From contig JBAZSB010000001.1 of NCBI GenBank assembly GCA_041662625.1, forward strand, positions 51,572 to 115,571: DNA of 64,000 nucleotides. Reading direction: 5' to 3'. This DNA comes from Patescibacteria group bacterium. Lineage in GTDB: Bacteria; Patescibacteriota; Patescibacteriia; Buchananbacterales; UBA6539. The notes below the pieces were generated by a model. It was not told the origin of the DNA. It did no database searches and worked only from the letters and a program-made list of their open reading frames with translations. This document shows, one piece after another, positions 3,248-51,675 of this stretch (within the stretch, counting starts at the first letter, position 1; each line of letters begins with the position of its first letter). The position numbers were made by a program, and so were the translations under genes.

Positions 3248-5620
3248 ATGAATCTAAAAATATCCTACAATTGGCTCAAAGAATATCTTAAAACTGACAA
3301 ATCAGTTAATGAATTTGCCAAAGAGTTTTCTTTAAAAAGCCAAACTATCGACCGGATTGAACCAGTTAAGCCGAAATTTAAAGAGGTTATTACCGCTAAA
3401 ATTTTAGAAATTGAAAAACATCCCGGAGCGGATAAGTTAAAATTAGTTAAGCTGGATGCGGGCAAAACCAAACCAACAGTAGTTTGCGGCGCGCCAAATA
3501 TCAAAGCTGGCCAAGTTGTTCCTTTGGCCCTAGTTGGGGCAAAGGTTTTGGATCCAACTGAAGAAGGTAAGACTTTTACTATCAAAAAAGCCAAAATTAG
3601 AGACGTGGAAAGCAATGGCATGCTTTGCTCACAAAAAGAATTAGGTCTTGGCCAGGATCATACGGGAATCATGATTTTACCCGATAAAACGCCAATTGGG
3701 AAACCACTGGAAGAAATTTTAGATTTAAATGATTATCTTTTAGAAATTGAAGTTACCTCTAATCGGCCGGATGCCATGTCTGTGGTCGGCTTAGCCCGTG
3801 AGGCAGCCTCAGCGGTCGGTGGTAAATTCACTTTTGAAACCTCGCAGCCAAATTTAAAAGTCAGCCAAGCCAAACCGCTACTCGTTGAGGTCCTGGAGCC
3901 AAAACTTTGTCCCCGCTACCAAGCAGTAGTTATGACTGACGTCGAAGTCGGGCCTTCGCCTTTGTGGCTGCAAATTAGATTACTTTCAGCCGGTCTTCGG
4001 CCGATTAATAATTTAGTTGATATTACCAATTATATTTTGCTGGAATATGGCCGGCCGATGCATGTTTTTGATTACGAAAAGCTTGCCGGTCAAAAAATTA
4101 TTGTCCGCAAAGCCAAAGCGGGCGAGAAAATTTTAGCTTTAGATGGTAAGACTTATTCACTTAAGCCTGACCATTTGGTTATTGCTGACAGTAAAGTCCC
4201 CGTCGCTATCGGTGGGGTAATGGGCGGTGAAGATTCAGCCGCAACTTTTAAAACCAAAACCATTGTTTTTGAAGCGGCCGCTTTTGATCCGGTTTTGATC
4301 CGAAAAACCGCCCGTGAATTAAATTTACATTCTGAATCCTCTGATCTTTTTGAAAAAAATCTTCATTCTCAAACGACTTTAGACGGGATTTTGCGGGCAA
4401 TTGAATTAACGCAAAAATTAGCTAAAGGTATTGTCGCTTCTAATATTATTGATATCAGCGCTAAAAAATACCAGCCCACTAAAGTCAGTTTTGACCCCGC
4501 TAGTGTCAAGCGGCACTTAGGCGTGGAAATTCCCCTTGAACAAATTAAAAAGATTTTGGAATCCTTAGGATTTGGTGTTGCCGGATCTAAAATTTTAAAT
4601 GTGACTATTCCTTACTGGCGGGCTAACGACGTGGCTTTTGAGTATGATTTAATTGAAGAAATCGCCAGAATTTATGGTTATCATAATTTACCCACTCAGC
4701 TGCCCCAAGGCGAAATTCCCTTTGAGCCAAAAAATCCGTTGTTCTTTTGGGAAACTGTAGTTAAAAAAACTTTGGCCGCTTTAGGTTTCACCGAAAGCTA
4801 TAATTATTCCATGGTCTCCAAGGAATTGCTCCAGCAAGCCAAATTTCCGGCCCAAGATGCTTTAAAGATTTATAATCCTTTAAATGAGGAAATGGAATAT
4901 CTGCGGCCAACTCTTTTGCCCCAGGTTTTAAAGAATGTTGCTGATAATTTCAATAATTTTTCTGAGCAGAAAATTTTTGAGCTCAGTCATATCTATTTAG
5001 TCGGAAAAGATAACCAGTTGCCAACAGAACTGCCAAAACTGACCGGGGCGGTTTTGGGCCAAAATTCTTTTCTGGTGGCCAAAGGTGTAGTGGAAATTTT
5101 ACTGAAGGAAATAGGCATTTTTGGCTATCAGATGGTTTTGACTGATCCGGAGTGTCCTTTATGGGAAAAAGATCACACTTTGGATATTCGGCTTGGTAAA
5201 CAGTTTTTAGGGCAATTTGGCATTGTCCGAAAAAATATTTTAGAACATTTTGATCTTAAAAAGCCGGTGGCTTTGTTTGATTTTGATTTTAAAACTTTAG
5301 CGGAACTAGCCACAACCGTTAAAACTTACCGGCCCATTCCTGAATTTCCCAGTGTGACTCGTGATTTGGCGATTTTGGTTGACGAAAAATTAAGCTGGCA
5401 GGCAATTAGTCAATTAGTGAGTAAGGCCGATCCTTTGATTACTGAAGTTGAATATTTGAGCACTTTCGCTGACTCGGCTTTAGGCAAAGGTAAGAAAAGT
5501 TTGGCCTTGCGCTTGGTTTTTCGCAGTCGGCAAAGAACTCTAAAATCTGAAGAGGTAGATCAGGTCGTTGATAAAGTGATTAATAAGTTGGAAAAGAGTT
5601 TTGATGCTAAGTTGAGGTAA
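3248..5620 (+). CDS. pheT: phenylalanine--tRNA ligase beta subunit
   Basis: N-terminal tRNA-binding domain (NWLKEY...), B3/4 and B5 regions, 780 aa; ATG at 3248 with MNLKISYNWLKEYL. Confidence 0.9.
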   Translation: MNLKISYNWLKEYLKTDKSVNEFAKEFSLKSQTIDRIEPVKPKFKEVITAKILEIEKHPGADKLKLVKLDAGKTKPTVVCGAPNIKAGQVVPLALVGAKVLDPTEEGKTFTIKKAKIRDVESNGMLCSQKELGLGQDHTGIMILPDKTPIGKPLEEILDLNDYLLEIEVTSNRPDAMSVVGLAREAASAVGGKFTFETSQPNLKVSQAKPLLVEVLEPKLCPRYQAVVMTDVEVGPSPLWLQIRLLSAGLRPINNLVDITNYILLEYGRPMHVFDYEKLAGQKIIVRKAKAGEKILALDGKTYSLKPDHLVIADSKVPVAIGGVMGGEDSAATFKTKTIVFEAAAFDPVLIRKTARELNLHSESSDLFEKNLHSQTTLDGILRAIELTQKLAKGIVASNIIDISAKKYQPTKVSFDPASVKRHLGVEIPLEQIKKILESLGFGVAGSKILNVTIPYWRANDVAFEYDLIEEIARIYGYHNLPTQLPQGEIPFEPKNPLFFWETVVKKTLAALGFTESYNYSMVSKELLQQAKFPAQDALKIYNPLNEEMEYLRPTLLPQVLKNVADNFNNFSEQKIFELSHIYLVGKDNQLPTELPKLTGAVLGQNSFLVAKGVVEILLKEIGIFGYQMVLTDPECPLWEKDHTLDIRLGKQFLGQFGIVRKNILEHFDLKKPVALFDFDFKTLAELATTVKTYRPIPEFPSVTRDLAILVDEKLSWQAISQLVSKADPLITEVEYLSTFADSALGKGKKSLALRLVFRSRQRTLKSEEVDQVVDKVINKLEKSFDAKLR

Positions 5621-45314: not shown

Positions 45315-45443
45315 ATGGAAAAATGCAAAGAATGCGGCATGCCACTAGACGAAAAAACTTGCTGTGCTTGCAATTCCGAACTGTGCTATCACTGTTGCGC
45401 CTGCGGACCAGAATGCACCTGCGGCTGCCAAGAAAAAGAATAA
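45315..45443 (+). CDS. candidate 42-aa cysteine-rich small protein (12 Cys)
   Basis: MEKCKECGMPLDEKTCCACNSELCYHCCACGPECTCGCQEKE. Not in the ORF track because it is under 60 aa. Fills the gap between the gap stop and a strong terminator at 45462-45488. Confidence 0.4.
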   Translation: MEKCKECGMPLDEKTCCACNSELCYHCCACGPECTCGCQEKE

Positions 45444-45461
45444 TACCTTACTATTTCAAAG

Positions 45462-45488
45462 GCCCCGGTGATACCGGGGTTTTTGCTT
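45462..45488 (+). terminator. rho-independent terminator
   Basis: ccccggt-gata-accgggg perfect stem followed by tttttgcttt. Confidence 0.6.
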
Positions 45489-45520: not shown

Positions 45521-45645
45521 TAATGTCAAAATCCTAATGTCAAATATCAAATCAAATCCAAAGCTCAAATACCAAATATTGAGCTTCGTTTTTGTCATTT
45601 GTCATTGATTTGGCATTTGGATTTTGGAATTTGTAATTTTTGAAG
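45521..45645 (-). repeat. about 100-nt 'gacatt/tcaaat' palindromic element, copy 1 (inverted relative to copies 2 and 3)
   Basis: aatgtcaaaatcctaatgtcaaat is the exact reverse complement of atttgacattaggattttgacatt at 49606-49629. Internal inverted repeats (ccaaagctcaaata/tattgagctt; caaatccaaa/tttggatttgg). Confidence 0.45.
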
Positions 45646-45738
45646 TGGGGGTTTTTGATTTGCCAGGAAGAAATATTTTCGTTAAGATATACAATAATTG
45701 AAGTTTCCATTTCAGGACCAAAGGAGGAAGGAGGAATA

Positions 45739-46008
45739 ATGAGGACAAAAGGAGTTCACCAGGCCAGGGCAGCGGCGGCCAAGGTAAAGCAATTGTCTTT
45801 TGTTGCGCCGCGAGGCTCTTTGGGCTGGCTTTCGGCCCTCTTACCGGAGGAATCTAAGCCAAGACGGTATGACTTGGTGAATGAGTTCGACGGTTTTGGC
45901 GTTGTAGCAATTGTTCCGGCGGAGGGAATTGCGGATTTGATTTCCGCCCTTAAACATGAGGGCGCAGAGCAGATCACTGTAGTAAGTATTGAAATGTACG
46001 TACCTTAA
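45739..46008 (+). CDS. stand-alone HisG C-terminal regulatory-domain-like protein (89 aa)
   Basis: Strong SD aaaggaggaaggagg. ...ALLPEESKP...GFGVVAIVPAEGIADLISALKHEGAEQITVVSIEMYVP is collinear with the C-terminal domain of the HisG-like ORF at 47531 and with E. coli HisG C-term (..[22 protein letters not shown]). Confidence 0.5.
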   Translation: MRTKGVHQARAAAAKVKQLSFVAPRGSLGWLSALLPEESKPRRYDLVNEFDGFGVVAIVPAEGIADLISALKHEGAEQITVVSIEMYVP

Positions 46009-46033
46009 TCATCCAGCATCATCGCGTTTGCGT

Positions 46034-46067
46034 CCGGCGGAGCCATGTGGTTTCCGCCGTTTTTTTT
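46034..46067 (+). terminator. terminator (homologous to the one at 48486-48517)
   Basis: ccggcggagccatgtggtttccgccgtttttttt. Confidence 0.5.
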
Positions 46068-46128
46068 AAATCTTGACGTCATTTTCTGTCTGTGTTAATG
46101 TACTAATATACTAATACGTTAAAACATT

Positions 46129-46419
46129 ATGAAAGCAGGTCACAATTGGCAAAATCAGTCAAGTAAAGCGCTGTTTAAAGCCATTTTAAAGCTCAAAACA
46201 CCGGCTGAGGCCTCTAAGTTCTTCCGTGATTTATGTACCCTTGAAGAGCTGGAGGAGATGGAAAAGCGCTGGCAGGCAGTCCAGATGATTGCCAAAAACA
46301 AGCCTTACCGTGAGATCGCCAAAAAGACCGGCTTAAGTACTTCAACCGTTACCCGCGTTGCCCATTGGCTGAATTATGGGGAAGGCGGATATAGGCTAGT
46401 TTTGAAAAGAATTAAATAG
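46129..46419 (+). CDS. TrpR-like DNA-binding protein, YerC/YecD family
   Basis: 96 aa; ...ELEEMEKRWQ...REIAKKTGLSTSTVTRV HTH typical of the YerC/YecD family. Confidence 0.65.
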   Translation: MKAGHNWQNQSSKALFKAILKLKTPAEASKFFRDLCTLEELEEMEKRWQAVQMIAKNKPYREIAKKTGLSTSTVTRVAHWLNYGEGGYRLVLKRIK

Positions 46420-46481
46420 CGAGTTCAGTAAATTCAGTAAGTTAAGTCACTGGCCTAAGGGCTTAATTTACTGAACTCGCT
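46418..46481 (+). repeat. 17-bp perfect-stem hairpin (gcgagttcag family) after the yerC-like gene
   Basis: agcgagttcagtaaatt ... aatttactgaactcgct with a 30-nt loop. Related to the motif at 59419-59442 (cagcgagttcag-ctgaactcgctg) and the downstream aactcgctgNacttgctNaat blocks. Confidence 0.45.
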
Positions 46482-46502
46482 GTACTTGCTGAATTTACTA
46501 AT

Positions 46503-46562
46503 ATGAATAAAATCAGTCAAAACATCCATCATCACCAGATTGTCTCGCCAGAGTCGAGGTAA
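46503..46562 (+). promoter_or_regulatory. candidate leader peptide with three consecutive His codons (MNKISQNIHHHQIVSPESR), followed by a hairpin plus T-run (46585-46612)
   Basis: ATG 46503 ... cat cat cac ... TAA 46562. The hairpin ccccggctttggtcgggg plus ttttgctt lies 25 nt downstream. The next gene (radical SAM, then hisG-like) starts at 46657 with a strong SD. Confidence 0.3.
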
Positions 46563-46656
46563 TTTGGTATTTTGAAATATCAGCTTGCCCCGGCTTTGGT
46601 CGGGGTTTTGCTTATAGTGAGCAAAGCCGGCTCTTTGAGAATTTAGGAGGGGAATC

Positions 46657-47538
46657 ATGATTCAGCGTGTGATGGTTGAGTTAGATAATCGTTGTGGGCG
46701 TGATTGTCCGCAGTGCTATCTAGGGTCGGATAAGCGGGGTTTGCCTTTGACTGAAGCGGTCAGGCGGGTCAAAATTCTGCAGGCACTGGGTATACCTAGT
46801 ATTAAGCCGATTTTTGGCGAGGTGCTAGATCACCCGGAATATCTGCAGCTGTTTCCACTTCTTGGCCACCATTATTGCCTTAGCTCGGGCGCCGCGATAG
46901 TTTCCGATCCGTCAATCCGGCAGCAGCTGGTTCAAAATGGTATCAAGGCGGTGAGGCTAAGTGCTCATTACTTTGACCAAGGGCGCTGGTCGCCGGTGCC
47001 GCTATCAGTTGTCCATGAAGCGATCCGATTGTTGCACGAGGTTAGTATCAAGGCCGAAGCTTTCACTATACTCTGGCGTGGTAACTACCAGTCAGTATCA
47101 GCAATCTGCCAGCGGGCAATCGCGGATGGTATCTCTACGCTACGGTTCATCAACTTGATGCCGATCCGTCCCGAACTACGATCCGATGTTCTAACCGTCG
47201 CTGAGATTCAGCAGGTCTTTGACCAGGTGGCATTAATGCGTCAGCAGATTCCTAAAGATCAGTTGACCATTAAATTGCTCGGAAACTTCGGGCCAAGACC
47301 TGGGAGTTTAGGACAAGAGTTATCTCAGAGGCGATGCTATTGTCCTGCCGGTCGGGAGAGTATCTACATCGATATTGATGGTTTAGTCTACCCTTGTATG
47401 TTTCTGCGGGGGCCACAGTGGGTGATAGGTAGATTGAACAGAAGAAAATTGACAATCAAGCAAATAACCGATAGGTTTGATCGTCGAACCTGTCAACTAC
47501 TGATACAAACGAAGGAAAGGAGCTTGAACGATGAGTGA
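46657..47538 (+). CDS. radical SAM enzyme with C-terminal SPASM/twitch-like Cys motif
   Basis: CGRDCPQC (Cx3Cx2C) at residues 13-20; C-terminal CYCPAGRESIYIDIDGLVYPC. SD aggagggg; GC-rich. Confidence 0.7.
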   Translation: MIQRVMVELDNRCGRDCPQCYLGSDKRGLPLTEAVRRVKILQALGIPSIKPIFGEVLDHPEYLQLFPLLGHHYCLSSGAAIVSDPSIRQQLVQNGIKAVRLSAHYFDQGRWSPVPLSVVHEAIRLLHEVSIKAEAFTILWRGNYQSVSAICQRAIADGISTLRFINLMPIRPELRSDVLTVAEIQQVFDQVALMRQQIPKDQLTIKLLGNFGPRPGSLGQELSQRRCYCPAGRESIYIDIDGLVYPCMFLRGPQWVIGRLNRRKLTIKQITDRFDRRTCQLLIQTKERSLNDE

Positions 47539-48439
47539 CACACAGAGAGGTTGCCGGTTGTTGGTACCAGACGGTTCGCTAGAAGAAGAGGTGCAGCGCC
47601 TGCTTTTTGAAGCTGGTATTCCAGTTTACTTTTCGGGAGACCGTCAGAACCGCGGCAAGATCAGGAATCCCGATTTGTTTCCGCCGCCGTTTGACGGGGT
47701 AATTCGGATGCGGCCTCAAGATGCAGTCTGGATGGTGGCTGACGAAAAGGCAGACTTGGCATTCGCCGGTGATGATTTGATTGCCGAGTTTGGCTATGGA
47801 AGAGATCTTGCGGCAGTCAGGCGTTACCCGATTTCCCGGGGAGGCGTCGGCGAGACGCGAATTGTAGTGGCAGTACCCCATGACTCGCCGATTCAGTCAA
47901 TCGGTCAGATCACTCCTGAGTGCGAGCTGGTTACCGAATATCCCAGTCTTGCCACGAGATGGCTGCAAGAGAGGGGCGTCACGCCACGTATTCGCCTTTC
48001 TCACGGAAAGACGGAAGTTTTCGGCGGCGGGATCGCTGATGTCATCGTTGAAAACACCGAAACCGGTAATTCCTTAACCGTTGGCGGCTGGCGGATCATC
48101 GATGAAATCATGAGGTCGCAACTGCGCGTTTTTACTCACGGAAACGCCGGCAGTTTTATGTCTTGGCTTGAAGATGAATTCTGCCTATTGCTTGACTCCG
48201 TGATAAACGCGCGTTCCTACCGATTGATCAAGTGCAATTCACCCGCGGAGCGATTGGAAGCCGTTTTGGCCATACTGCCGGCCGCGGGATCGCCGACAGT
48301 TAGCCAACTGGCCGACAAACTGGGATTCGCTATTGAATCAGTCGTCCTTGCTAAACAAGTACCTGGTCTTGTCACGCGTCTTCGCCAAGCAGGGGCACAG
48401 GCTGTTATTGACTTGGAAATGGCCAAGTACATTCCTTAA
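47531..48439 (+). CDS. hisG: ATP phosphoribosyltransferase, long form (HisG-like)
   Basis: Collinear with E. coli HisG across catalytic and C-terminal domains (RLLVPDGSL; TEYPSLATRWL...GIADVIVENTETGNSL; SPAERLEAVLAILPAAGSPTVSQLAD; AVIDLEMAKYIP). Overlaps the radical SAM stop by 8 nt, so probably translationally coupled. Confidence 0.7.
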   Translation: MSDTQRGCRLLVPDGSLEEEVQRLLFEAGIPVYFSGDRQNRGKIRNPDLFPPPFDGVIRMRPQDAVWMVADEKADLAFAGDDLIAEFGYGRDLAAVRRYPISRGGVGETRIVVAVPHDSPIQSIGQITPECELVTEYPSLATRWLQERGVTPRIRLSHGKTEVFGGGIADVIVENTETGNSLTVGGWRIIDEIMRSQLRVFTHGNAGSFMSWLEDEFCLLLDSVINARSYRLIKCNSPAERLEAVLAILPAAGSPTVSQLADKLGFAIESVVLAKQVPGLVTRLRQAGAQAVIDLEMAKYIP

Positions 48440-48485
48440 GATATGATCGGGCGATTGTATCAAGGATGTTGAGCCATCATTTTGA

Positions 48486-48517
48486 TCAGGCGGAGACCGC
48501 ACGGTTTCCGCTTTTTT
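48486..48517 (+). terminator. terminator after the hisG-like gene
   Basis: caggcggagaccgcacggtttccgcttttttt; about 80% identical to the terminator at 46034-46067. Confidence 0.5.
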
Positions 48518-48544
48518 TTATTTTTATGGTATAATATAGGCATC

Positions 48545-49531
48545 ATGACGACTAAGCAATTAGCTAAATTTTTAGAATATTTGGCCCAGCAAAATATTGT
48601 TTGGGCGCCGCAGCGGATTGATGGGGAATTGGTCATCGAGCAGGTGACTGACCCCAAAAAAGTTGAGTTAACAAGCGAAATGCCGCTGTATTCTTTTAAG
48701 CAGATTTTGGTGCCTCCCGAAGAGGTGCTTTTTAATTATCAAAAAAATCAGATTAAACCTGAGATTAAATCGCCCAGCCAAGTAATTTTTGGTTTAACCA
48801 TCCCGGATTTAAAAGCAGTAACTTTTCTAAACCAAGTTTTTGCCCAAGATCCCTATTTTCAGAACCGAATTAAAAAGACTATAATTGTCGGCCATAGTTT
48901 GGTGCCGACCGAAGGCTATCAATTTTTTATCAATAAGTTTGCCGAAGATATTTTGGAACATTTGAAATTTGATATTTTCTTTGCTGTCCAGAAAGATAAA
49001 TTTATTATTTACGCCGGTTCGGAAGACGGTCAAAAAGTTTTAGATGACTTTGGCTATAAGAATTATCAATACATTGAATATGCCGGCCCGATTCGCGAAG
49101 AGGGACCGGATGGGCAAATGTTAAAAATCAGAGAGAAATTTTATCAAAATAAAGAGATTTGGCAAGAGCTTGGCAACCGCTGTATTGAATGCGGCAAGTG
49201 TACTTTGGTTTGTCCAACTTGTTTTTGCTACAATATTTTTGATCAGCCGGAATTTGAACCGAAATCCGGCCAGCGGCGGCGCTTTTGGACCACTTGTTTT
49301 TATACGGATTTTTCCGAAGTCGCTGGCACGGAAATTGATAAAATGAAACCAAAATTTTTGAAAAATACTAGCGCGCGAATTAGGTTTTGGTATGAACATA
49401 AGTTTGTCCGTTGCCCTGATGAATTTCAGCTGGCTGGTTGTGTTGGCTGTGGCCGCTGCACCAAGGTTTGTCCGGTGGGAATTGATATTAAGGAAACACT
49501 GCAGAAAATTTTGAAGGGAAAGATTAAATAA
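48545..49531 (+). CDS. hydB: group 3b [NiFe]-hydrogenase beta subunit (HydB/AsrA-like, 2x[4Fe-4S])
   Basis: CIECGKCTLVCPTCFC and CVGCGRCTKVCPVG ferredoxin motifs. ATG 48545 with an upstream TATAAT (about 48528). Followed by hydG. Confidence 0.65.
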   Translation: MTTKQLAKFLEYLAQQNIVWAPQRIDGELVIEQVTDPKKVELTSEMPLYSFKQILVPPEEVLFNYQKNQIKPEIKSPSQVIFGLTIPDLKAVTFLNQVFAQDPYFQNRIKKTIIVGHSLVPTEGYQFFINKFAEDILEHLKFDIFFAVQKDKFIIYAGSEDGQKVLDDFGYKNYQYIEYAGPIREEGPDGQMLKIREKFYQNKEIWQELGNRCIECGKCTLVCPTCFCYNIFDQPEFEPKSGQRRRFWTTCFYTDFSEVAGTEIDKMKPKFLKNTSARIRFWYEHKFVRCPDEFQLAGCVGCGRCTKVCPVGIDIKETLQKILKGKIK

Positions 49532-51287: not shown

Positions 51288-51675
51288 AATCCCATTTTTT
51301 GCTTTTTTGCTTTTTTGCTTTTTTGTTTTCTTGTTTACTGGTTGTCAGCTTAAGGAAAATTATTCGATGCAATCAAGTTTCACTAATGACATTGCTACGG
51401 AAACTAAAGTTGAAGTGGTGACTGATGGTCTTAATGCGGAAGTGCCGTTTGCTGACTTTAGTTGTGACATTAAAAGTTTTAAGCCAGTTTTAAATCGTGA
51501 TGCTGATACTTTTACTATTACTTTAAAGGGTAATGAAACCACTGAACGGTGTGGGCAGAAATTTTCTGCTCAAATCACCGGCGTTGTCCCGGGTACTTAT
51601 TGGTTAAAAGTGATTTACCAAAAAGCCGGGTCTAGTCAGCAAGTTTTATATCAGCAGTTTACCATTGCCAAGTGA
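51277..51675 (+). CDS. hypothetical lipoprotein (possible transporter accessory protein)
   Basis: Signal peptide plus lipobox FTGC; overlaps the nikM-like stop. Confidence 0.4.
   Translation: MKNKIPFFAFLLFCFFVFLFTGCQLKENYSMQSSFTNDIATETKVEVVTDGLNAEVPFADFSCDIKSFKPVLNRDADTFTITLKGNETTERCGQKFSAQITGVVPGTYWLKVIYQKAGSSQQVLYQQFTIAK

Follow-up and report, generated by a model that had tools for sequence, protein, structure and literature searches.

The window analysed here is a stretch of 64,000 nucleotides from a Patescibacteria group bacterium (GTDB lineage Bacteria; Patescibacteriota; Patescibacteriia; Buchananbacterales; UBA6539), taken from positions 51,572 to 115,571 of contig JBAZSB010000001.1 in assembly GCA_041662625.1 and read on the forward strand. 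At 45739-46008 (+ strand), it carries an open reading frame (ORF) of 89 amino acids with the product MRTKGVHQARAAAAKVKQLSFVAPRGSLGWLSALLPEESKPRRYDLVNEFDGFGVVAIVPAEGIADLISALKHEGAEQITVVSIEMYVP. This small protein is a free-standing paralogue of domain III, or HisG_C, of the long-form ATP phosphoribosyltransferase (ATP-PRT), which is encoded by hisG further downstream. The best explanation overall, to which a probability of about one half is assigned, is that the ORF is a real HisG_C paralogue that arose by an old partial tandem duplication, diverged fast and has an altered ligand or partner. The domain family is a known one and nothing found so far goes beyond known kinds; the new part is the lineage-restricted, stand-alone form. 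A literature search on stand-alone HisG_C proteins and on his genes in Patescibacteria found nothing relevant.

The neighbouring hisG (47531-48439, +) encodes a long-form enzyme of 302 residues, and its start overlaps the stop of a radical S-adenosylmethionine (SAM) gene. The product matches TIGR00070 with 89.9 bits (cut-off 75.75) and, in Pfam, both HisG and HisG_C. Its C-terminal regulatory domain, to which the small protein is paralogous, spans residues 227-302 (48209-48439, +), with the HisG_C match covering residues 227-298 at 64.1 bits. The small protein is not fused to the HisG catalytic domains I and II and is encoded as a separate ORF.

The small protein belongs to the HisG_C family

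Among Pfam and NCBIfam families, HisG_C is the only one matched by the small protein. Here, the Pfam score (PF08029) is 23.8 bits against a gathering score of 23.5, a narrow margin, and the orthologue described below, P0026, scores 27.1 bits. The match to TIGR03455 reaches 31.9 bits (E 1e-7) and lies under that model's cut-off of 40.05. The earlier note had read the ORF as a match to the C-terminal domain of HisG, and this reading holds: in BLASTP, residues 33-89 align with HisG residues 247-302 at 26% identity and 54% positives (E 3e-6, as a single comparison). When 22 sequences are aligned, the small protein runs colinear with the entire HisG C-domain, starting at the end of the inter-domain helix and continuing to the final residue; the aligned stretches LGWLSALLPEESKP of the small protein and LEAVLAILPAAGSPT of HisG fall within this match. 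The two proteins also end alike, as had been claimed, with YVP-stop in the small ORF and YIP-stop in HisG.

A profile built from the two small proteins matches the C-domain in 25 of 25 HisGs tested. When this profile was compared to PDB, the best matches were the HisG structures 2vd3 (E 4e-6) and 4yb5 (E 7e-4), followed by the PII structure 4ozj (E 1.4e-3). An AlphaFold2 (AF2) model made from an alignment that included HisG sequences (model 1) has a predicted local distance difference test (pLDDT) score of 90 and the order beta-alpha-beta-beta-alpha-beta. In Foldseek, its closest PDB entry is the HisG 2vd3, with a template modelling (TM) score of 0.84 and a root-mean-square deviation of 1.6 A; the top 29 entries are all ATP-PRT, and PII/PstA proteins appear from rank 31 with TM scores of about 0.6. 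As the HisG sequences in the alignment could bias this model, the prediction was repeated with the two small proteins alone. This second model reproduces the topology at a pLDDT of 78, and ATP-PRT again fills its top 23 Foldseek ranks. Across both models, the ATP-PRT matches have TM scores of 0.7-0.84, so that both predictions for the 89-residue protein are closest to ATP-PRT domain III.

These results bear on the idea that the ORF encodes a generic PII/ACT-type, ferredoxin-fold regulator unrelated to HisG. The idea draws on 4ozj as a weaker profile match and on the PII/PstA entries that follow in the fold search. However, those entries stand behind the 23-29 top ranks filled by ATP-PRT, and HisG_C is the sole family assigned. 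In addition, a Pfam search at E <= 1 gave no match to the P-II family, an insertion of T-loop length is not present, and the protein follows HisG through both the linker helix and the very C-terminus. A generic regulator is hardly credible and is not supported, as family, fold and alignment tests all favour HisG_C. The claim that this is a stand-alone HisG_C gene rather than an ACT or P-II domain is therefore upheld by Pfam, by the PDB profile search and by Foldseek with both models.

A separate gene with a single known orthologue

The ORF is preceded by a double Shine-Dalgarno sequence, AAAGGAGGAAGGAGGAATA, which as AAAGGAGGAAGGAGGAA occupies 45720-45736 (+); the strong ribosome-binding signal that had been noted earlier is thus present as read from the sequence. 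Further upstream, a consensus scan places a promoter-like site, TTGCCA-17 nt-TAAGAT, at 45660-45688 (+), the function of which is putative. The block TTTGCCA...ATTTT..TTAAGATA is also found 5' of the orthologue at 4826-4856 of locus L007, which has AAGGAGGAA at the position matching the Shine-Dalgarno sequence. Downstream, the gene is followed at 46034-46067 (+) by an intrinsic terminator, CCGGCGGAGCC-ATGT-GGTTTCCGCCGG... and then T8, with a hairpin of -19.1 kcal/mol. The DNA of this locus was found in three independent assemblies with 0-2 mismatches. Judged by these signals, 45739-46008 is a real gene, predicted to be transcribed separately with its own promoter, strong Shine-Dalgarno sequence and terminator. 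No HisR-type operator was found at this promoter, the sole match in the window being at the yerC promoter; the small gene has neither a His leader nor an operator.

An exhaustive phmmer search of 1.84 billion representatives returned one other protein, P0026, which has 92 residues and is 49% identical (E 1.4e-13). It is encoded in a second Patescibacteria genome (loci L007, L008 and L009), where the slot directly after gap is conserved and the order is EF-Ts, PSP1, Gmad2/Germane, gap, small gene, hisG and Fer4_22 hydrogenase-type genes. A free HisG_C gene beside hisG is thus present in a related genome, and there the two stand in direct tandem, in the order small gene, terminator, promoter, hisG, terminator. 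No further family members were found in word-indexed searches, with either a protein query or a two-sequence profile query, or in back-translated scans of genome-contig and metagenome-contig collections.

Between the two small genes, nucleotide identity at codon positions 1, 2 and 3 is 0.61, 0.66 and 0.33. As far as sequence comparison can tell, this pattern is the signature of purifying selection on the protein, although conservation statistics from a family of two members are thin. The proteins have diverged faster than their neighbours, being 47-49% identical as compared to 80% for Fer4_22 and 77% for the FAD/NAD protein. In both genomes, the frame is open and insertions or deletions are in-frame only.

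Such fast evolution and so tiny a distribution could also fit a non-functional relic, that is, a decaying piece of a former second hisG whose frame is open by chance. The hisG of L007 is itself decaying, and the canonical ligand residues of the small protein are lost, as described below; both would suit a relic. However, codon positions 1 and 2 are conserved twice as well as position 3, and neither genome shows a broken frame. Likewise, the promoter, strong Shine-Dalgarno sequence and terminator have been kept, the two proteins share the loop LPxESxPxRxD, and the structure model is confident and compact. A relic is accordingly regarded as improbable.

An old partial duplication is the preferred origin

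Judged from sequence comparison, the chance that the small gene arose in situ, by an old partial duplication of the 3' end of hisG, is put slightly above one half. This 3' end, possibly with the hisG terminator, would have been duplicated in tandem in the ancestor of the window genome and one sister lineage; afterwards the copy would have diverged fast while its beta-alpha-beta-beta-alpha-beta fold was kept. A duplication origin is inferred here, and the terminator was possibly copied with it.

The age of the event can be bracketed. Coding DNA without similarity, protein identity of 26% and the modest profile rank of the neighbouring HisG (see below) together mean that any duplication is old. 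As the orthologue is already at 49% identity in the second genome, the small gene predates the split of the two genomes, whose conserved neighbour proteins are 77-80% identical. At locus L011, the order is gap, yerC, His leader, hisI (PRA-CH) and hisG, with no small gene between gap and yerC; the layout at L012 and L013 is like it (distant relatives, local-HisG identity 42-53%). On gene order, this looks like the older arrangement, and the absence of the small gene from such loci would place its birth on the branch shared by the window genome and L007.

The terminators also bear on the origin. The hisG terminator, CAGGCGGAGACC-GCAC-GGTTTCCGC followed by T8, lies at 48487-48519 (+) and has a hairpin of 11 pairs and -17.3 kcal/mol. 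With their GC-rich hairpins and T runs, both this site and 46034-46067 are predicted to be intrinsic (Rho-independent) terminators. They had been described as about 80% identical; the resemblance is confirmed at a lower figure, with 39 of 53 columns matching in the best local alignment (about 74%) and about 77% over the shorter strings used before. The alignment score of the two regions is 32, while 300 shuffles gave 18.2 +/- 2.2 and a maximum of 28. The common pattern is GGCGGAG(A)CC-4 nt-GGTTTCCGC plus a T run, and GGCGGAG-N6-10-GTTTCCGC occurs at just these two sites in the 64 kb (0 of 100 shuffles). The resemblance also recurs in the second genome: the core GCGGAG...GTTTCCGC, with an identical G.U wobble, is found in 4 of 4 terminators of the two genomes and at no other place in the window or the loci. 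About 20 informative bases remain in the comparison, half of the resemblance being forced by hairpin symmetry; these are too few to prove that the terminators descend from one ancestor.

The hisG terminator of the window is exactly that of L007, where HisG is 41-52% identical, and it differs by 1 nt from that of L004, where HisG is 80% identical. The terminator therefore evolves more slowly than hisG, and finding the terminator conserved next to a coding copy that is no longer recognisable involves no contradiction. Exact scans of metagenome and genome collections with the 22-nt hisG terminator gave no match.

A related observation concerns the DNA that follows. The hisG terminator and the extended -10 promoter (TGGTATAAT) of the downstream Fer4_22 operon form a block that is near-identical in three genomes (window 48474-48545, L004 1290-1345, L007 6268-6332), while hisG is 41-80% identical. 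By sequence, the conservation of this block is more than a plain terminator would need.

Several results weigh against descent from the neighbouring hisG or against the explanation as a whole. First, the coding DNA of the small gene and of the hisG 3' end aligns with a score of 16, compared to 17.3 +/- 2.5 for shuffles. Second, tblastn of the window and L007 detected no remnants of the HisG catalytic domains above noise 5' of the small gene. Third, the neighbouring HisG (P0002) ranks 13th of 25 HisGs against the two-small-protein profile, and descent from this hisG lineage is thus not demonstrated by sequence. Fourth, among all 1371 pairs of terminator-like sites in the window, the small-gene/hisG pair ranks about 4th-5th with a score of 21, while the best chance pair has 24; the resemblance is significant if the pair was specified beforehand (about 0.4%), and it is not a unique outlier. 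Fifth, looser GCGGA...TCCGC stems stand 3' of hisG in L005 and L006, making convergence on a common stem possible. The family of two members counts here as well. Finally, hisG at L007 (5343-6256; likewise at L008 and L009) has a frameshift that splits it and recurs in three assemblies; the phosphoribosyl pyrophosphate (PRPP) loop of the product reads ENREWG versus ENTETG, while the adjoining small gene is intact.

The first of these points is decisive for a different version of the duplication, in which the 3' end of the present hisG and its terminator were copied recently and the DNA is still recognisable. The terminators, at about 75% identity with a common core, and the shared Y-[VI]-P-stop would suit such an event. 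However, the coding regions resemble each other no more than shuffled DNA does, the two proteins are 26% identical, and the gene is older than the split of the two genomes that carry it. A recent segmental duplication is thus very improbable, and it was rejected on the nucleotide alignment of 45739-46008 with the hisG 3' coding region, which has no signal. The earlier note had proposed that the hisG 3' end and its terminator were duplicated and that a pairwise alignment would bear this out. In this regard, the protein comparison gave a signal and the coding nucleotides did not; an old event is plausible, though two genomes are not enough to prove it, and a recognisable copy of the present hisG 3' end is not what is found.

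The base composition around the locus is also unusual. In a block of about 45700-48450, the GC content of the small gene, yerC, the radical SAM gene and hisG is 0.45-0.53, versus 0.41 in the rest of the window. At third codon positions, these four genes have 0.51-0.54, as compared to 0.39 +/- 0.06 in other genes, and this common feature counts in favour of a local duplication. A raised GC content of hisG is also seen in L004 and L007, and is absent from L005, L006 and L011.

An independent origin has to be weighed here, in which the small gene stems from another hisG, through horizontal transfer or an older paralogue, and the terminators are convergent or gene-converted. Against the profile, the neighbouring HisG does not outscore distant HisGs, the entire block has a composition foreign to that of the genome, and the terminator pair is not the top-scoring one in the window. 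The locus is also plastic, with hisI, the radical SAM gene, a SemiSWEET-like gene or another gene before hisG. In contrast, the best two profile matches, P0006 and P0007, belong to the local Patescibacteria HisG clade. Furthermore, the aromatic residue three positions before the C-terminus (Y/F-[VI]-P) is found only in the small proteins and this local clade, other HisGs having I/V. The direct tandem at L007 and the same wobble in all four terminators also speak for an origin in place. Independent origin is consequently rated a real possibility, though a doubtful one, and the old partial duplication is preferred.

A ligand site that appears remodelled

In long-form ATP-PRT, the C-domains of three subunits cluster and L-histidine binds between neighbouring domains, which stabilises a closed, inhibited hexamer (PMC5415358; PMC10464499). 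The site in M. tuberculosis comprises D216, D218, T238', A249, L253', A273 and L275, and the substitutions D216V, T238'V or A249K abolish inhibition (PMC13018310). These residues were transferred to the present proteins through the 22-sequence alignment, and the positions given here are by alignment only. The local HisG retains the usual site residues within KCN, PTVS, GFAIE and GAQAVI. In both small proteins, the Asn/D218 position is Val, the A273 position is Gln or Glu, and the L275 position is Thr or Val. The T238 position, otherwise invariant, is Arg in the window protein, while Thr is kept in P0026.

The loop of the site, LPxESxPxRxD, is conserved between the two small proteins. As the contact residues are replaced and the loop is nevertheless conserved, the binding site has probably been remodelled and would still be under constraint. 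The product may act as a small oligomer that binds, in the manner of PII proteins, a ligand or partner other than the usual one. The earlier note had proposed a free regulatory domain; the domain family is borne out, but regulation by histidine in the canonical manner has to be qualified since the contact residues are replaced.

How the protein would act is speculative. One option is that it caps, or mixes with, the clusters of regulatory domains of the neighbouring HisG, thereby changing feedback behaviour. A second option is that it has taken on a role independent of HisG. The hisG of L007, with its frameshift, is likely a pseudogene, and an intact small gene beside a damaged hisG argues against a role that strictly needs HisG. 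Here, either the decay of hisG is very recent or the small protein is independent of it. Taken together, the replaced contact residues and the survival of the gene beside a frameshifted hisG make a role in plain histidine feedback improbable.

The stronger form of the first option is that the free HisG_C domain is a trans-acting regulatory subunit, which co-assembles with or caps the domain III clusters of long-form HisG. As the histidine-contact residues are changed, feedback would then be re-tuned, abolished or coupled to a new signal. This specific proposal is considered unlikely.

The surrounding his locus

The genes between the small gene and hisG have regulatory features of their own. 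The first, yerC (46129-46419, +), encodes a YerC/YecD regulator of 96 residues (HisR-like, TrpR family), with 86.4 bits for TIGR02531 (cut-off 42.2) and E 9e-25 for Pfam Trp_repressor. HisR sites are 20-bp palindromes, and hisR, whose repressor has been described for Firmicutes, is often autoregulated (PMC9413887). Consistent with this, the yerC/hisR promoter contains a palindrome-like site (46097-46117) with a candidate HisR operator, GTACTAATATACTAATAC, at 46100-46117 (+), which is the only exact match in the window. Perfect palindromes, TGTATTAGTATACTAATACA and ACTGTATTAATATATTAATACAGT, occur 5' of yerC at L011 556-585 and L013 1-25. A third copy of the half-site lies at 46492-46504, just 5' of the ATG of a His leader, and its position suggests that HisR control may act on top of attenuation. 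In addition, an inverted repeat with 20-nt arms, 95% complementary and without a T run, begins at the yerC stop (46418-46481).

The leader, MNKISQNIHHHQIVSPESR (46503-46562), has three consecutive His codons and lies in the 237-nt spacer before the radical SAM gene. Together with the terminator GCCCCGGCTTTGGTCGGGGTTTT (46587-46610), it forms a candidate histidine attenuator at 46503-46613 (+), recognised by reading the sequence and by a terminator scan; an alternative long hairpin that would sequester the attenuator terminator is predicted with z -3.0. His leaders with 2-3 consecutive His codons, one of them with HH only, are kept, together with a terminator and matching hairpins, at L005 160-275, L011 899-1020 and L013 332-445. 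We know of no description of such a histidine attenuator in Patescibacteria. An Rfam scan of 44.0-49.5 kb gave chance-level matches only.

The radical SAM/SPASM-like gene (46657-47538, +) encodes 293 residues with the motif CxxxCxxC. It matches Pfam SPASM with 24.8 bits and Radical_SAM weakly; its best NCBIfam model is TIGR04317 at 27 bits, and no curated radical SAM subfamily was matched. The gene is translationally coupled to hisG through an ATGA overlap. In relatives, the gene before hisG is hisI (L011 1061-1408, L012 19-450, L013 467-805), a gene for a SemiSWEET-like membrane protein (L005 323-598) or another gene (L004 1-330). From its gene content, the neighbourhood is a candidate remnant of a histidine regulon, made up of a HisR-like repressor, a His-leader attenuator and a radical SAM gene coupled to hisG.

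On the other side of the small gene, an unannotated ORF of 42 residues with 12 cysteines (MEKCKECGMPLDEKTCCACNSELCYHCCACGPECTCGCQEKE) lies at 45316-45444. It has no match in Pfam or NCBIfam and is absent from L007. Its terminator (45462-45488) resembles the his attenuator terminators, with 24 of 26 nt shared with L005; the two form a second look-alike pair, colinear with that of the small gene and hisG. As for a Cys attenuator leader, no antiterminator was predicted for this ORF and no similarity to the His leaders was seen. A link to peptide maturation, in which it is paired with the putative maturase encoded by the radical SAM/SPASM gene 1.2 kb downstream, is conceivable. Between the ORF and the small-gene promoter is an AT-rich inverted repeat with 24-nt arms (45522-45631).

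Relation to known regulators

Domain III of long-form ATP-PRT (M. tuberculosis 1NH8/5LHU, C. jejuni 4YB5, M. thermautotrophicus 2VD3) is the closest known relative; it has the fold of the small protein, and the sequence homology extends across the full domain, from the linker helix through to the hydrophobic-[VI]-P end. The small protein differs in being separately encoded with a promoter and terminator of its own and in the substitutions at histidine-contact positions (the D218 equivalent, T238 and A273 of M. tuberculosis). Domain III clusters as a trimer in the ATP-PRT hexamer, whereas the small protein is known here from its sequence and predicted fold. The scope of the finding is limited, the gene being carried by two genomes only. 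Whether or not the protein acts on HisG, it is a clean, datable case of gene birth at the level of a domain in a reduced Patescibacteria genome.

PII/GlnB-like proteins, including PstA/DarA, are also small, stand-alone and ferredoxin-like (about 90-110 residues), and have TM scores of about 0.6 to the small protein. The proposed working would be similar as well, in that a small ligand would be bound by an oligomer, which in turn modulates a partner. The small protein, lacking a Pfam P-II match and a T-loop and being closer to HisG_C, is not a member of the PII family.

The neighbouring genes match the layout of HisR (YerC) with a His leader (PMC9413887) in having a YerC/YecD protein that exceeds its NCBIfam cut-off and whose gene has a palindromic site in the promoter, and in having a three-His leader with a terminator. 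The difference is that the host belongs to the Patescibacteria and that the locus is reduced to hisG and the radical SAM gene, with hisI in relatives and no full his operon. A cut-down his locus in Patescibacteria would thus still be surrounded by histidine-responsive regulation, in the form of a His-codon attenuator and a HisR-like repressor.

The final comparison is to HisZ, a histidyl-tRNA synthetase paralogue of about 300-400 residues and unrelated fold, which serves short-form HisG as a regulatory subunit in trans. In both systems, provided that the small protein does act on HisG, ATP-PRT would be regulated by the product of a separate gene. Such an analogy would concern function alone, and the local HisG, being a long form, has a regulatory domain of its own already. 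Should the small protein prove to act on HisG, it would be an allosteric domain that has escaped from its enzyme to become a separate regulator, giving a third architecture of ATP-PRT regulation beside long-form HisG and the HisG-HisZ complex. As a trans-acting subunit, it would represent a new form of this regulation, HisZ-like in logic and independent in origin, in bacteria with minimal genomes.

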